Assembly: GCA_021786105.1 (NCBI GenBank)
Contig: JAJYNW010000025.1
Location: 1 to 13,893, forward strand
Source: a bacterium
GTDB lineage: Bacteria > Patescibacteriota > Microgenomatia > Daviesbacterales > UBA10151
Length of the DNA stretch: 13,893 bases
Reading direction: 5' to 3'
Positions 1 to 10,462 of this stretch are shown here, in pieces. The position numbers were made by a program, and so were the translations under genes. Within the stretch, counting starts at the first letter, position 1, and each line of letters starts with the position of its first letter. The notes under the pieces are model-generated. The model saw only the letters and a program-made list of their open reading frames with translations. It was not told the DNA's origin and did not search any database.

Positions 1-8
1 GTTTTCAT
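1..8 (-). CDS. 5' end of a gene running off the left edge (MKT...)
   Basis: Minus strand reads AAAGGAGG-aattg-ATG AAA AC: a strong Shine-Dalgarno (14-21) 5 nt before an ATG at 8-6. Only 2.7 codons are visible. Confidence 0.4.
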
Positions 9-135
9 CAATTCCTCCTTTCAGCTCAGATAATGATTTAATTCCAGCAAGTTTGAGTGCCGTTTTAATATACCTGAACCCCTTAATTCTAACTGAAAGG
101 TGTATATGATCCGCTAGCTCACCTACATAATTCAT

Positions 136-164
136 TTGACACTTATTATCAACCTATGTATGAT
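136..164 (+). promoter_or_regulatory. sigma70-type promoter
   Basis: TTGACA (136-141), 17 nt, TATGAT (159-164). The TTG 'start' at 136 in the ORF track is the -35 box. Confidence 0.75.
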
Positions 165-177
165 ACAAAAATCTATT

Positions 178-423
178 ATGGTTGAAAAAGGTGGAATAAT
201 TGGAACAACTGAGGTAACAAGTGATGATCCTATTCTTAAAGCAACAATAGGTAAAAACTATACTTTCCAAGACTTTAAAAATAGCTGTGTTGGTTTAACT
301 CCTGAGCAGATTGAAAAAGATTGGCTAGCGCAACTGGGTAATATAGCACTTTCCGACAAAGAGTGGCGGGGTTCAACTCCGGTTAAGGGGATGGCTTTTG
401 TTGAACAGGATGAACGCATTTAA
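178..423 (+). CDS. hypothetical protein (81 aa, accessory ORFan)
   Basis: Open frame; start moved from TTG136 to ATG178 because a near-consensus promoter lies at 136-164. No recognisable motif. Confidence 0.65.
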   Translation: MVEKGGIIGTTEVTSDDPILKATIGKNYTFQDFKNSCVGLTPEQIEKDWLAQLGNIALSDKEWRGSTPVKGMAFVEQDERI

Positions 424-470
424 CTATCTGAGTGAAGCTTGTACTTTTAATTCTTTCAATTTCCACATAA
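424..470 (-). pseudogene. orphan duplicate 3' end of the 500..805 gene (MWKLKELKVQASLR*)
   Basis: 468-445 encodes MWKLKELK, identical in protein to 577-554 of the neighbouring gene but with synonymous codon differences; ends at TAG 426-424. Confidence 0.75.
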
Positions 471-521
471 GGACCTTCTCGCTCGCAGTATGAGATATTT
501 TACTGCTCGCTTCGAAGAACC
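471..521 (-). repeat. imperfect palindromic element with tandem GA mismatches
   Basis: Minus strand GGTTCTTCGAAGCGAGCAGTA-aaatatctca-TACTGCGAGCGAGAAGGTCC pairs as GCAGTA/TACTGC, GA/GA, GC/GC, GAA/GA, CTTC/GAAG, GG/CC. It contains the stop codon of the 500..805 gene. Confidence 0.65.
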
Positions 522-805
522 TTGCCTCCCGCCTTCGGCGGGACGTAAACACTCTTCAGTTCTTTGAGCTTCCACATAAATACACGAGCCTTAGACTTAG
601 CGGAGGTGTAGCCTTTGGTAAAATTTAAGGCTTCTTCTAAAATATGGCGGTCAATGTTTTTGGCCAGTTTGATATAAAGCGAATAATGTTTGGTATCCTG
701 CAGGCTTTCTGCCAAGAAAACTCCGTACATTTGGAATTCTTTTGAAATGTTTCTAGGTCGGTCTTTAAACTTAACTTCCGCAATGGCTTTGGCGATGGAT
801 TTCAT
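500..805 (-). CDS. small basic hypothetical protein (101 aa); C-terminal tail derived from palindromic elements
   Basis: ATG overlaps the TGA of the upstream gene (ATGA at 805-802), consistent with translational coupling. The synonymous conservation in the duplicated 3' end supports real coding. Confidence 0.85.
   Translation of the reverse strand: MKSIAKAIAEVKFKDRPRNISKEFQMYGVFLAESLQDTKHYSLYIKLAKNIDRHILEEALNFTKGYTSAKSKARVFMWKLKELKSVYVPPKAGGKVLRSEQ
527..543. repeat. mini-hairpin TCCCGCC-TTC-GGCGGGA, translated in frame (VPPKAG)
   Basis: Perfect 7-bp GC-rich stem in AT-rich context; on the minus strand the loop is c-GAA-g (GNA triloop). Confidence 0.75.
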
Positions 806-2862
806 GGTTTAGCCGGAGCAGTTGCTTCTTTTAGCTGGGTTAGCGCTTCCAGGTAATCCGGCTTTAATTTAACAGCTTCCTGCAGGGCTTGAATCGCCTC
901 GTCTTTTTTGTTAACGGTATCCAGTATCAGGGCTTTGTTGTAATAAAGCTTGGGGTCGGTAGGAGCCAGTTTTATGGATTCATTCAAAACCTGCAGAGTC
1001 TTATCCGTATAGTTTTTGTCAATTACAGCAAGCTCAAAATAGGTTCGGATGGCAGTCCGCCAAAATGAAACATTTTTAGGATCACTTTTTAAAACTTCTT
1101 CGGTGTCGGCAATAGCTTCGTCTTTTAAGTCGGCAGATAAAGTAGCATCAGTATCTTTTAAGCTGGCTGCGGCTTGGGCTGCTACAAAACCAAGTTCTGA
1201 TTTATAAAATGGTTCACCGTTATTGAGTTCCGAGGCTGATTTGAGGGCGTTATATGCCCGGCCGGCATTGCCTATTTCACTTGCCCTTTCGCCTTGGGCA
1301 AAAAGCGTATCAGCATACCAGAGTTGAAAAATGGCATATATGAAGTATAAAGTAAAGAAAATGGTAATACCTTTGGCGGCTTTGGTATAAAAGGGGCGAT
1401 GGTAAATCAGGCGAAAGAGGCGGGAGGCAGGGTGTAAAGCGGAAGGTAATTTAAAAGGTTTGGTTGATTCTGTGGTGATAAAAGCCAGAGCCGGAAAAAC
1501 ATAGAAAAAGACGGCAATGATCACCACGGAAAAAAGAAAGAAATTAGAAATCAGGTAAGCGATATAGGCGGCAAGTAAGCAGGCGATAAATATTATGTGG
1601 GAAGTGTTATGTGTTTTTTGTCTTATACTTAATACCAAATACTTAATGCAAAATACTATAAAGGCTCCGATTACCAGCATATATGTCCCAAAACCCACTA
1701 TTCCGGTGGTGGCCAAGTAATTTAGGTACTCATTGTGGGCTTTGTTATATAAGAAGTCCCATTCGGAAGTTAAATTATGTTCGGCTGGACGGTATTGATA
1801 ATAAGAGTAAGCAAAAGTTTCCAATCCGGAGCCTAAAATTGGGTAATGTTTGAAAATATCCCAAGCTCCTTTCCACACAATCAGCCTGATCTGGCCAGAT
1901 TCGGAGCCGCCATTTTCCAGCTGGGTACCGGTGGGCGCTGGGGCGGCAGTAGGAATGTTTATTCCCGGTCTGGCCGGAGCAGCAAATTTAGAGATTAACC
2001 GGAAACTGGTTAAAGCTGAGCCAAAAAGCAGGTTAATGATGAGAAAGGATACGATAGTGGCAAGTAGCAATTTAACACTGTCATTCTGGGGAGGAGCAGA
2101 GCGACGACTCCAGAATCGATTCTGGACAAGCCAGAATGACATAAATACTGCTACCATCCCTCCAATCAATCCCACTGTCGGGCCGCGGGAATAGGTAAAG
2201 GTGAAGGCCAAGTAGTAAGTAGTAAGTAGTAAGTAGTAAGTATACTGGGTTGATCTTTTCGTCGCGGTTAGGAAGAAATAAAGTGTTGGGAAAATCAGCA
2301 TGGCTAAATAGGCAGCCAGCCAGTTCGGCTGGCCTAAAGTGGCAAAAACCCGGTCCTGGACTACCTGGATCCAGCAGGAAGCGTTAAATTCCCCCCTTAA
2401 AATTATACAAGAGGGGGAAACTCCAAAATGTTCGGAAATTCCCCACAAAGAAATAATAAAACCACTGGCCAGCCCAAATTTGAGGGCTGATTTAACTTTG
2501 GCAAAGTCCATATTGGAAACAAAAGCCCAAAATAATAATAGGTAGGAAATTATGGAAAGCAGGCCGCCGTTGGAACGGGAATAATAGCCCCAAATGGAAG
2601 TATGCGGGTCGATGGAAAAAATAGTGGATAGGATATTTGCTCCCAAAAACAGTAGTAAGGGAATATCAAGCGGAGTCCTTCTAAAGATTAAAGTTTTTTC
2701 AGAAATCATCTTTAACACCCAAGTCCCGACGATAAGCACTGTAAAGCCGTAAACTAAGATCATTTTGTTATATTCAAACAGCTCAAAATTTGAGGAGGTC
2801 CAAAAAAGCGGGGTTAAAAAGAAAAGCAGGTAAAAGGAATAAGGAATGATCCTGGTTAGCAT
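802..2862 (-). CDS. O-antigen ligase / oligosaccharyltransferase-like (Wzy_C) polytopic membrane protein with C-terminal TPR repeats
   Basis: Many hydrophobic segments. Motifs RVFATLGQPNWLAAYL, FTYSRG, RLIVWKGA..HYPILGSGLETF and KAHNEYL are typical of the O-antigen ligase family. TPR-like end (APTDPKLYYNKALIL...EAIQALQEAVKLKPDY). ATG2862 preferred; TTG2868 is possible. Confidence 0.88.
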   Translation of the reverse strand: MLTRIIPYSFYLLFFLTPLFWTSSNFELFEYNKMILVYGFTVLIVGTWVLKMISEKTLIFRRTPLDIPLLLFLGANILSTIFSIDPHTSIWGYYSRSNGGLLSIISYLLLFWAFVSNMDFAKVKSALKFGLASGFIISLWGISEHFGVSPSCIILRGEFNASCWIQVVQDRVFATLGQPNWLAAYLAMLIFPTLYFFLTATKRSTQYTYYLLLTTYYLAFTFTYSRGPTVGLIGGMVAVFMSFWLVQNRFWSRRSAPPQNDSVKLLLATIVSFLIINLLFGSALTSFRLISKFAAPARPGINIPTAAPAPTGTQLENGGSESGQIRLIVWKGAWDIFKHYPILGSGLETFAYSYYQYRPAEHNLTSEWDFLYNKAHNEYLNYLATTGIVGFGTYMLVIGAFIVFCIKYLVLSIRQKTHNTSHIIFIACLLAAYIAYLISNFFLFSVVIIAVFFYVFPALAFITTESTKPFKLPSALHPASRLFRLIYHRPFYTKAAKGITIFFTLYFIYAIFQLWYADTLFAQGERASEIGNAGRAYNALKSASELNNGEPFYKSELGFVAAQAAASLKDTDATLSADLKDEAIADTEEVLKSDPKNVSFWRTAIRTYFELAVIDKNYTDKTLQVLNESIKLAPTDPKLYYNKALILDTVNKKDEAIQALQEAVKLKPDYLEALTQLKEATAPAKP
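2079..2141. repeat. 63-bp REP-like inverted dimer, in frame within the ligase gene
   Basis: Perfect 11-bp terminal inverted repeats TGTCATTCTGG (2079-2089) / CCAGAATGACA (2131-2141) and a central 18-bp perfect palindrome TCCAGAATCGATTCTGGA (2109-2126). The length is a multiple of 3. Confidence 0.85.
2210..2242. repeat. heptanucleotide tandem repeat (AAGTAGT)x4.7 within a CDS
   Basis: Four perfect units plus AAGTA; encodes YYLLLTTYYL on the minus strand. Confidence 0.9.
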
Positions 2863-9254: not shown

Positions 9255-10462
9255 ATACAGAAAATCCTAATCGTGATGTTCAAAGAGAGATGGTCTATCA
9301 ACAGATCCAAGATCCGATTTCTCGAGAGTTGCTAAGAAGTAGCATTCCTGGCGATAAAGTGCATGAATATAGACTAGCAAGTCCAGTAGGTCCACAATTT
9401 GCCCAAAATCTGGTTGAGCTATTAAGAAGAGAAAGGGGAAATGCAATTAGAGGTATTCTGGGAGTAGCTGCGACAGCCCAAAATCCTGCTCAGCTATCTA
9501 ATGCCCTAGGTACCTTCGGGTTACTAGCACATCAGGGTTTGCTAAGAGATGAAGCAAATCAGTTATTTGATCAAGCTCAAGATGAATTTTTACGACAACC
9601 GTCTGCAACCCCTTTTGCAACTGATGGTGCACGGGCACTGCAAGCCCAAATGATTGGAATGTGGAATGAAGTACATAATAGACAAGGAAGGTGGGATACG
9701 CCAGAAAGTAAGGAAGGGGATGTTATAAATTTAATTCATCATCTGCAGGACGAAATCTGCAAGGGACTCAAAAACAATTCAGGACGAGGTAAATATTGGG
9801 CTGAAGCTTATCTTTTGACAGTATTAGATCCCGGTACCCCCTTTGGATTAAGAAAAATATTGCTTTCAAAAACAATTAAACTCGATTTTGGTATCCAACA
9901 TTACGTCGTTTATTCATATTCCTACGGAAATCCCTACGGAGACGATCCCCGATTTAATCAAGGCGCCAGTATCTGGGGGTCAGCAAGTGCAGCATGGGTT
10001 TATCCAGAGATATTTGGATCCAATAAAGGCGGCGATGTTAAAGATTGGGAGATTGCAGGTCTTCGAAAAACAATCGCTTCCTTACAGCAACAACTTGAAC
10101 GTACTCCTCGGTCTGATGCTGGTATTGAACAAGAGCGGGCTCGGTTAAGAGAGTTGATGTTGAGTATGCAAAGGATGGTTACTGAAGGTGAGGCGAAATT
10201 GAGGATTTATAAAGAGATTGGTCAGCATCCTCTGGATGCTTTAGGTTTAGGTTATGATGTATGGAGAAGAACTGATATAGAAAGTAGAAAGAAGCTTGTT
10301 CTCGGTAATTATAGAGAGAGAGCTAAAAGGTATCATTACCAAATTCCCTCGTCAGATCCACGGTTTGATCCACTTTTACAAGAACTTGCTAATAAAGAAT
10401 TCGGTCGTTTAACCAAAGCTTATGACTATCTAAATCAAAATATTACTAAGGAAGAATTTTAA
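9251..10462 (+). CDS. hypothetical protein with coiled-coil and C-terminal degenerate J (DnaJ-like) domain
   Basis: HPLDALGL...NYRERAKRYHYQ...ANKEFGRLTKAYDYL follows the J-domain helix pattern (xxYxxLGL...AYRxLAxxYHPD...AxxxFxxIxxAYxxL) but has HYQ in place of HPD. Confidence 0.75.
   Translation: MNTENPNRDVQREMVYQQIQDPISRELLRSSIPGDKVHEYRLASPVGPQFAQNLVELLRRERGNAIRGILGVAATAQNPAQLSNALGTFGLLAHQGLLRDEANQLFDQAQDEFLRQPSATPFATDGARALQAQMIGMWNEVHNRQGRWDTPESKEGDVINLIHHLQDEICKGLKNNSGRGKYWAEAYLLTVLDPGTPFGLRKILLSKTIKLDFGIQHYVVYSYSYGNPYGDDPRFNQGASIWGSASAAWVYPEIFGSNKGGDVKDWEIAGLRKTIASLQQQLERTPRSDAGIEQERARLRELMLSMQRMVTEGEAKLRIYKEIGQHPLDALGLGYDVWRRTDIESRKKLVLGNYRERAKRYHYQIPSSDPRFDPLLQELANKEFGRLTKAYDYLNQNITKEEF

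Follow-up and report, generated by a model that had tools for sequence, protein, structure and literature searches.

The window analysed here is the whole of contig C24 (13,893 nt) of genome G000, which belongs to an ultra-small bacterium and is an assembly of 1,037,274 nt (1.04 Mb) in 26 contigs that is 92 % complete. It was studied within a set of 96 Daviesbacteria-family genomes (G000 and 95 others), and protein relatives of its genes carry the names Candidatus Daviesbacteria or Patescibacteria. One locus raises the question of how a small core gene came to possess two versions of its own 3' end, one in place and one stranded downstream as an orphan, with a two-hairpin repeat element lying at the junction. 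The answer that we prefer, at a probability of roughly 0.55, is that the orphan is the displaced and most likely non-functional native end of the gene, and that an allele-like replacement, linked to the element, now serves as the working end; how this came about we infer.

A gene end encoded twice at the edge of a repeat element

The features of the locus, all on the minus strand, are as follows.

500..805, minus: core small gene (101 aa ORF, open reading frame), conserved through ...FMWKLKELK, with its last 17 codons read from the inserted element
554..577, minus: copy 1 of MWKLKELK, functional and contiguous with the gene (ATG TGG AAG CTC AAA GAA CTG AAG, codons 77-84)
500..553, minus: new C-terminal tail SVYVPPKAGGKVLRSEQ plus stop, element-encoded from codon Y onward
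467..549, minus: two-hairpin repeat element, ~83 nt, defined from BLAST, Logan contigs and a 53-copy alignment
544-549, minus: TTTACG, left end of the element
528-542, minus: hairpin 1 of the element (CCCGCC GAA GGCGGG), then conserved AGGCAAGGTTCT
471-521, minus: hairpin 2 of the element, then terminal ...AGGTCC TTAT, with TTAT at 467-470
424..468, minus: orphan end MWKLKELKVQASLR plus stop (copy 2), whose ATG shares AT with the element's terminal TTAT

The two copies start 109 nt apart. The orphan codons (468-445) are ATG TGG AAA TTG AAA GAA TTA AAA, which differ from copy 1 by six bases in four codons (two Lys and two Leu), all of them synonymous; the orphan then continues GTA CAA GCT TCA CTC AGA TAG (VQASLR; stop at 426-424) in a frame shifted by +1 from that of the gene. 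Identity, over the run TTATGTGGAA (470-461 versus 579-570), terminates at 470/471, at the element's terminal TTAT, and the gene itself enters the element at codon Tyr87 and stops within hairpin 2. The initial annotation had described the doubled MWKLKELK with its six silent differences, and a match ending exactly at 470/471, at the end of a palindromic structure; both descriptions were borne out on the minus strand, and the 471-521 hairpin folds as it had been drawn. At the DNA level the repeat is weak when taken by itself (20/25 identity, with other chance pairs of similar quality), so the case for it rests on the in-frame identity of the peptides at the end of the conserved domain. The pattern MW[KR]L.[EQ]L had exactly two matches in all six frames of the genome, both at this locus.

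The small gene is a core gene, with a homologue in 94/96 family genomes. Its conserved part closes at FMW[KR]L.. and is followed by a variable short tail in all 120 listed homologues (120/120), which are mostly 86-91 aa long and among which the window's 17-residue tail is the longest. The gene body joined to the orphan end would give 90 aa, a typical length for the family. The 101 aa protein matched no Pfam or NCBIfam family, and the protein atlas gave only unnamed clusters of the candidate phyla radiation (CPR).

The sequence between the copies belongs to a dispersed family. A BLAST search with 464-531 found matches in 60/96 family genomes (E ≤ 1), at 1-7 per genome, which nearly always spanned query positions 5-65, corresponding to window positions 527-467; in Logan run X3, at least four other contigs matched the window solely at 467/468-527 and then diverged into unlike sequence. 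Further copies in G000 lie at C26:28080-28143 and, in weaker form, at C8 and at the end of C26. The flanks of the copies define a unit that consists of ..TTACG, a small hairpin, conserved AAAGGCAAGGTTCT, a long hairpin (GTA(A/T)AAT loop) and CAGGTCC TTAT. The stem sequence of the small hairpin differs among copies with compensating changes, RNAalifold on 53 copies gave 17 pairs, 12 of them with double compensatory changes, and the 166-nt region folded at -47.8 kcal/mol (z = -3.5, 0/200 shuffles as good). The palindrome had initially been taken for a recombination joint; it is no recombination scar unique to this site, being one member of a conserved repeat family (70 copies examined) whose stems co-vary. 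An Rfam 15 scan of window positions 1-1200 gave no match to the element at E ≤ 1, the only hit being a chance one to SNORD29 elsewhere (E = 0.61).

Two further observations concern the element. A community contig in X3, with six differences from the window's element, jumps back 80 nt (joint 547>468) and is probably a tandem element pair in another organism or locus. The TsaD gene of G000 (C17:6150-6260, L205) has an in-frame extra stretch of ~40 residues; the DNA of this insert holds GTCCCGCCAAAGGCGGGAC, which is 22/24 identical to hairpin 1 of the window's element, together with the CGAGCGAAGCGAGCG motif. Possibly a core protein here contains the translation of a further hairpin repeat.

A repeat at the junction invites the suspicion that two strains or species were joined through a shared 60-nt sequence during assembly. 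The element is indeed repeated in the community, and no single Logan contig spans the whole of it with at least 31 nt on both sides; the De Bruijn graphs break within 479-508 because the hairpin is a repeat. Nevertheless, 470/471 is crossed without differences by Logan contigs from three runs in two studies (X1, X3 and X5), the relevant records covering 150-508 (X1, record 1), 150-524 (X3, record 4), 338-480 (X5, record 12) and 451-1000 (X5, record 13). The last of these runs unbroken and without differences from 1000 through the whole element to 451, including 17 orphan-specific bases. Depths on the two sides of the element in X1 were similar (20.5 versus 24.7), and the assemblies of 11 other species show this architecture too. 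X1 and X3 are possibly the samples from which the assembly was made; X6, X7 and X8 hold only small shares of the window and are uninformative on the junction, and parts of the window without cover in X5 and X6 do not count as evidence. The junction is more than an artefact in the assembly of this one contig, and a chimera is an extremely improbable explanation of it.

Recurrence at the small gene and at other genes

The locus of the small gene was fetched at 92 places in the family genomes, with the gene present at 91. At 12 of these 91 loci, MW[KR][LV].. cassettes, either one or two in number, follow the gene downstream at spacings of 60-116 nt. Four of the cassette-bearing genomes are of the same genus (G000, G077, G084 and G083) and the others (G054, G028, G029, G003, G062, G064, G002 and G066) are spread over eight other genera; three-cassette arrays were present in G002, G062 and G064. 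The full element occurs in three of the genomes (G000, G084 and G054), and the remaining genomes have a shorter hairpin whose two ends are the same (ACTCAAGGTYCT ... GGTTCTT) and from which they take tails such as ..ATQGP plus stop. The joint is ...CTT/ATGTGG throughout, with two exceptions that have CCT. Some loci possess the hairpin tail with no recognizable cassette (for example L089), and L165 keeps only ATGT after the hairpin. Five of 80 metagenome loci of the small gene, 74 of which include at least 250 nt of downstream sequence, carried a cassette, and three of those five duplicate genome cases.

The position of the orphan relative to the neighbouring gene def suggests which of the two ends is the resident one. 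def is the usual downstream neighbour of the small gene, a def-like motif being found within 700 nt at 52/86 loci, and it begins 53-98 nt past the last orphan in 7 of the 12 orphan-bearing loci. Alignment of G083, which is filled, with G088 and G089, which are empty, revealed one extra 66-nt unit in G083, past which its orphan, a promoter-like TACAAT and def were collinear with the normal gene end of G088/G089. Both copies in G054 carry MWKV, a feature absent from three congeners, and they agree at 19/20 positions over their first 20 nt; beyond these the working copy runs into ..LRK plus stop and the element, and the orphan into a full native-looking tail before def. Because the orphan usually holds the position of the normal end in element-free relatives, it looks like the resident end, and the working end and the element look like the newcomers.

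This bears directly on the origin suggested in the initial annotation, by which the accessory gene next to the orphan came in from a different lineage, bringing along a remnant of the gene that had flanked it in the donor and being joined at the palindrome's foot.

178..423, plus: convergent ORFan (ORF 136/178-423, stop 421-423), a neighbour outside the mechanism

The orphan stop does directly adjoin the stop of this ORF (423/424), as had been reported; the orphan codons are AT-richer; and the ORFan, which belongs to no Pfam or NCBIfam family, matched 0/95 other family genomes and is thus unique to G000, all of which would suit such an arrival. However, the orphan architecture occurs in 11 other genomes that do not have ORF 178-423, the core gene def comes immediately after the orphan at 7 of the 12 orphan-bearing loci, G084 has an orphan and an element like those of the window though the downstream DNA differs, and the palindrome is a dispersed repeat. 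A protein search for relatives ending in ...KELKVQASLR plus stop, which the same suggestion led one to expect, gave nine word-sharing candidates, none of which scored, and this is itself weak evidence. Arrival with the ORFan is, on balance, very unlikely.

The arrangement is not confined to the small gene. Flanking repeats were sought at 70 element copies (30 loci from BLAST and 40 further loci) by comparison with 300 shuffles per copy and a cut-off of p ≤ 0.01, and seven copies (7/70) were found to be flanked by a direct repeat of 13-46 nt that starts at the terminal TTAT or TTAC, with 0/300 shuffles as good. Five of the seven lie at gene ends, identified by Pfam: the small gene twice (window and G054), a citrate-synthase-like gene, triosephosphate isomerase (TIM) and serS. 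The citrate-synthase-like gene has FIIARAPGLCAHFINNS plus stop at its 3' end against LIIARAPGLCAHYINNI plus stop in the orphan (34/46 nt), with the differences spaced by three. The TIM repeat, of 33 nt, is at the 5' end of the gene: the orphan retains the native overlap with an upstream methyltransferase-like gene together with its own N-terminal residues, and the working gene starts differently, at 13 nt from the element; the same TIM site in L033 has an orphan with TAG at a Trp codon. The serS start shows a 16-nt match (15/16), the 15 nt from TTAT being identical. The sixth repeat-flanked copy is a full element at the rpsB start in G026 (L277; 12/13), and the seventh has a 16-nt repeat with no gene assigned; the flanking repeat at L244 matched at 15/16. 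The working gene is consistently on the element's TTTACG side, and 6/12 copies of the window's stem subfamily are at such gene ends. The rpsB start of G000 is likewise duplicated (ATGTATAAG ... CTT/ATGTATAAA, C6:28153-28250), in this case around a ~95-nt structured insertion ending ..AAACTT.

Orphan gene ends beside hairpins elsewhere in the genome, for which a search had been proposed, are present at several genes in G000 and its relatives. A scan of G000 for ORFs of at least 70 aa whose C-terminal 7-mers are repeated within 400 nt downstream gave eight loci, compared with none in the reverse-strand control, and two of these are clear besides the window locus. The first is a class II-type ribonucleotide reductase (C26 ~9780-9915, L206/L239; Pfam), in which KKCHSCGYSMC plus stop recurs 63 nt downstream, the 36 nt of the two copies showing six silent differences. 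This orphan was found at 4/30 loci (G000, G077, G090 and G029), always as ..L/KKCHSCGYSMC plus stop, and follows a different two-hairpin spacer, ending ..GTYCTT. The spacers of G029 and G090 are identical at 63/64 nt, although many silent sites in the adjoining codons differ. Sequence immediately past the stop pairs with the opening codons of the working copy, and G029 shows a compensating change in this pairing. The second is a PD-(D/E)XK nuclease-family gene (C17 ~2700-2790, L203; Pfam), in which KKDVYYL is repeated 28 nt downstream; the two copies are separated by five silent codon changes and one replacement, and each has a matching terminator arm.

Several family ribonucleotide reductase loci have open frames of ~1250-1700 aa, compared with ~880 aa elsewhere, which suggests inteins or other large inserts in some genomes.

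As regards the surroundings of the window locus, a minus-strand 688-aa O-antigen-ligase-like/TPR gene (802-2868) precedes the 101-aa ORF (500-805), and def was not found adjoining the small gene in G000. The contig end cuts off a 45-codon ORF at window positions 1-135 (minus strand), which matches no family and whose Shine-Dalgarno sequence (AAAGGAGG) is strong. In L002, L004 and L006 (G091, G078 and G079), the place of def downstream of the small gene is taken by a conserved non-coding stretch (...TTAATTTATCCTAAAGGACAT...GCCCTAC.TAGCACGTTTAAAGC...), which looks like a structured RNA gene on the other strand.

Divergence of the copies and alternative origins

The 14 orphan-to-cognate comparisons available from 11 GTDB genome loci (G054 was missed by the search pattern and is absent from this set) contained 44 synonymous and 22 non-synonymous codon differences, and the base differences were distributed 35/15/58 over the three codon positions. 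Replacement differences sit at positions that are also variable among real genes. Each of the four reductase orphans departs from its cognate at between 6 and 13 of 36 bases, and all encode KKCHSCGYSMC plus stop, so that 0/37 differences alter the protein; the identity of each orphan to its own gene (23-30/36) falls inside the between-species range (mean 27.9). Young repeats, such as those of serS, rpsB in G026 and G054, are nearly perfect. Damage was seen in the distal (third) cassettes of L093 (W>R) and L094 (stop), in L137 (stop) and in the TIM orphan of L033 with its TAG.

These figures can be set against a purely local event, either insertion with a long target-site duplication or a slippage duplication, after which the copies would have diverged in place without any input from another lineage. 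The (near-)perfect flanking repeats of serS, rpsB in G026, L244 and G054 are what such an event would leave, and imply that duplications arise locally and start out identical. A drifting orphan, however, would be expected to take most of the changes, about three quarters of them protein-altering, and yet none of the four changed codons in the window alters the protein (0/4), nor does any difference in the reductase orphans, whose identity to their own gene is not above that between species. We therefore think a local origin unlikely. The initial annotation had held that two alleles from different lineages were spliced together and that slippage was not the cause; the silent differences and the reductase identities agree with two alleles of one gene end and not with a recent slippage duplicate, and the splicing itself we infer.

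Silent divergence would also be produced by purifying selection, and the orphan cassettes might for that reason be regarded as functional mini-genes: peptides of 11-19 residues that copy the C-terminal helix, or a Cys-rich peptide at the reductase, with translation coupled to the stop in the hairpin. All small-gene cassettes begin with ATG, and many have AAGG 5 nt upstream, in a stem that a terminating ribosome would open; to this can be added the silent bias of the divergence, the protein identity of the reductase orphans in 4/4 cases and the G029/G090 spacer that is conserved beside codons differing at silent sites. Against these points, the damaged cassettes listed above exist, L083, L093 and L010 have no AAGG motif, the frame relation to the gene is inconstant, the reductase and citrate-synthase orphans have no ATG at the junction, and the cassette is kept in only 12/91 genomes. 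Moreover, the 5'-end cases (TIM, serS and rpsB) share the same geometry, and there a mini-gene makes no sense. Selection for such peptides is in our judgement an improbable origin of the arrangement.

Known systems, mechanism and meaning

REPIN/RAYT systems (repetitive extragenic palindromic, REP, sequences with REP-associated tyrosine transposases) and IS200/IS605-derived elements depend on HUH Y1 enzymes that act on single-stranded hairpins, with insertion next to a tetranucleotide and no target duplication. The element may resemble both groups in its two hairpins, co-varying stems and conserved flanks and in the scarcity of target duplication among its copies, and resembles REP/REPIN sequences also in being a short, palindromic, hairpin-forming repeat dispersed in the genome. 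Its conserved ends (left ..ACG, right TTAT) might be compared with the short conserved left-junction sequence of IS200/IS605-type elements, which have subterminal hairpins at either end, yet seven copies have long flanking repeats. From REP/REPIN sequences it differs in copy number (1-7 per genome at E ≤ 1, not tens to hundreds) and in not being found, as those are in inverted orientation, at the flanks of RAYT genes. RAYT-like genes occur in 81/96 family genomes, at up to 12 each, and each is bordered by its own CCACC..GGTGG hairpins; in G000 four RAYT-like genes and an IS200-like gene carry such other hairpins, and the end hairpins of the IS200-like gene at C23 differ from those of the element. 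One RAYT-like Y1 gene of 214 aa (G000 C26:8911-9552) is convergent to the ribonucleotide reductase gene and syntenic across the family; the RAYT-like protein scored 55 bits against an NCBIfam cut-off of 80.

Rickettsia palindromic elements (RPE) are palindromic inserts, a multiple of three in length, that are translated inside the host protein. Like these, and like MITEs (miniature transposable elements with inverted repeats), REP/REPIN, enterobacterial repetitive intergenic consensus (ERIC) and BOX sequences, the element is a short non-coding hairpin repeat into which a host ORF reads, gaining a C-terminal tail. Unlike what is described for them, a minority of its copies are flanked by variable repeats of 13-46 nt that restore a whole gene end and whose arms have diverged like alleles, and its copy number is low (1-7 per genome); it further departs from a classical MITE in having no target-site duplication of fixed length, flanking repeats being mostly absent. 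Phage e14 in icd and islands in tRNA genes are integrating elements that bring a replacement gene end. As here, the incoming element provides a similar 3' end, its differences mostly silent, by which the target gene is kept whole, and the old end remains as an orphan on the far side, but those elements are kilobases long and carry an integrase, whereas here ~85 nt without an ORF lie between the ends and 5' gene ends are treated likewise.

Small bacterial repeats that extend ORFs have been described before (Delihas 2011). Fungal mitochondria, according to PMC6279837, contain partial C-terminal copies of atp6 and cob just downstream of the intact gene, beside homing-endonuclease ORFs, and so share with the present case a partial copy of a core gene adjoining mobile DNA; here, in a bacterial host, no endonuclease ORF is present and everything is about a hundredfold smaller. 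The homology-facilitated illegitimate recombination of natural transformation, in which homology anchors one end while 3-10 bp of microhomology serve to join the other and which is described as working even with ~20 % diverged DNA (PMC6382021), would yield an allele-like copy and a retained resident end; what differs is that the joint here never departs from the element's exact end, and this suggests a step specific to the element. A search of the literature yielded no account of gene-end repeats that are long, variable and allele-like and that flank a bacterial repeat of under 100 nt, although this is not proof of absence.

Some other explanations were rejected. Simple tandem duplication fails because unrelated sequence follows the two copies. 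A diversity-generating retroelement does not fit, the differences including T/C and G/C (CTC/TTG, CTG/TTA) and not only template adenines, and the repeat being 24 nt and not ~100 nt or more. An in-frame insert of the RPE type is contradicted by the 109-nt spacing, by a frame that varies across genomes and by the stop of the host ORF inside the element, and readthrough into the orphan by spacings that do not keep frame.

The element lies within the gene end, at the TTAT of codons 76/77 (TTT ATG). On the TTTACG side it is linked to a duplicate, allele-like version of the final eight codons of the conserved part, by which the gene stays intact and gains a 17-residue tail, and on the TTAT side the old gene end remains. 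This arrangement, its return at one and the same nucleotide in many genomes and at further genes, the repetitive and structurally conserved character of the element and the native position of the orphan were observed directly, and they fit a small mobile or recombinogenic element that turns up inside an essential gene's end only alongside another copy of this end. In the sequence of events that we prefer, the right end of the element would have been joined at a TTAT in the target, its left side bringing a short stretch of the end of the same gene. The stretch could come from a diverged relative that already had the element at this gene, by one-sided homologous recombination and an end-specific illegitimate joint, or from aberrant mobilization of the element together with the sequence flanking it 5'; the working copy may also have gained divergence through replacement by another allele at a later time. 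Insertions inside the ends of essential genes would presumably survive only where a replacement end is present, and the displaced end would stay on the TTAT side and slowly decay, repeated events stacking further cassettes. If the orphan is the native end, the element-free allele would read ...FMWKLKELKVQASLR plus stop, and the insert would be 109 nt.

Several observations weigh against displacement of the native end by an element-linked replacement. No flanking repeat at p ≤ 0.01 was found in 62/70 element copies (one more, L032, was borderline at p = 0.017), so duplication is not obligatory for insertion. The 28-nt spacer of the nuclease-gene orphan contains no repeat element, which means that a more general recombination process may be at work. 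Between G000 and G084 the element is identical at 58/61 positions and the orphan at 21/24, but the working copies at only 14/24, a pattern that misfits a simple scheme in which the working copy travels with the element and that would require either the working copy to have been replaced afterwards or a breakpoint to lie within the element. Most orphans are intact, which also fits selection on them. No enzyme could be tied to the element, the IS200-like and RAYT-like Y1 genes of G000 having different flanking hairpins; the TnpB zinc-ribbon family had no match in G000, and neither did ComEC, which in a 92 %-complete genome is not proof of absence. Finally, no close relative of G000 is available that would show which copy is foreign: its nearest DNA relative is at 79 % identity, and a mosaic search in the gene body for donor versus resident sequence was therefore powerless.

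A bolder version, which we put forward as a tentative and rather doubtful possibility, is that the element is a minimal, ORF-less 'homing' module of less than 150 nt that re-enters the same codon of essential genes across genera, always with a recoded replacement end. It might be guided by a trans-acting single-strand nuclease or by pairing of the carried gene fragment with its target, and older ends would be pushed downstream as a 'conveyor' of decaying cassettes. The trick would be the one used by integrating phages and mitochondrial endonuclease elements.

Under the preferred reading, a tiny repeat can inhabit the ends of essential genes in a streamlined genome without killing its host, a spare, allele-like end coming along with it. 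This would account for the odd C-terminal tails and upstream mini-ORFs (rpsB, serS and TIM) in these genomes, and annotators would have to treat the short orphan ends as neither assembly errors nor new genes. Should the end-joining step prove enzymatic, a site-specific activity on single-strand DNA, as yet undescribed, would be indicated. The trail of displaced gene ends could be used to date or trace insertions, and possibly recombination between uncultivated CPR lineages.

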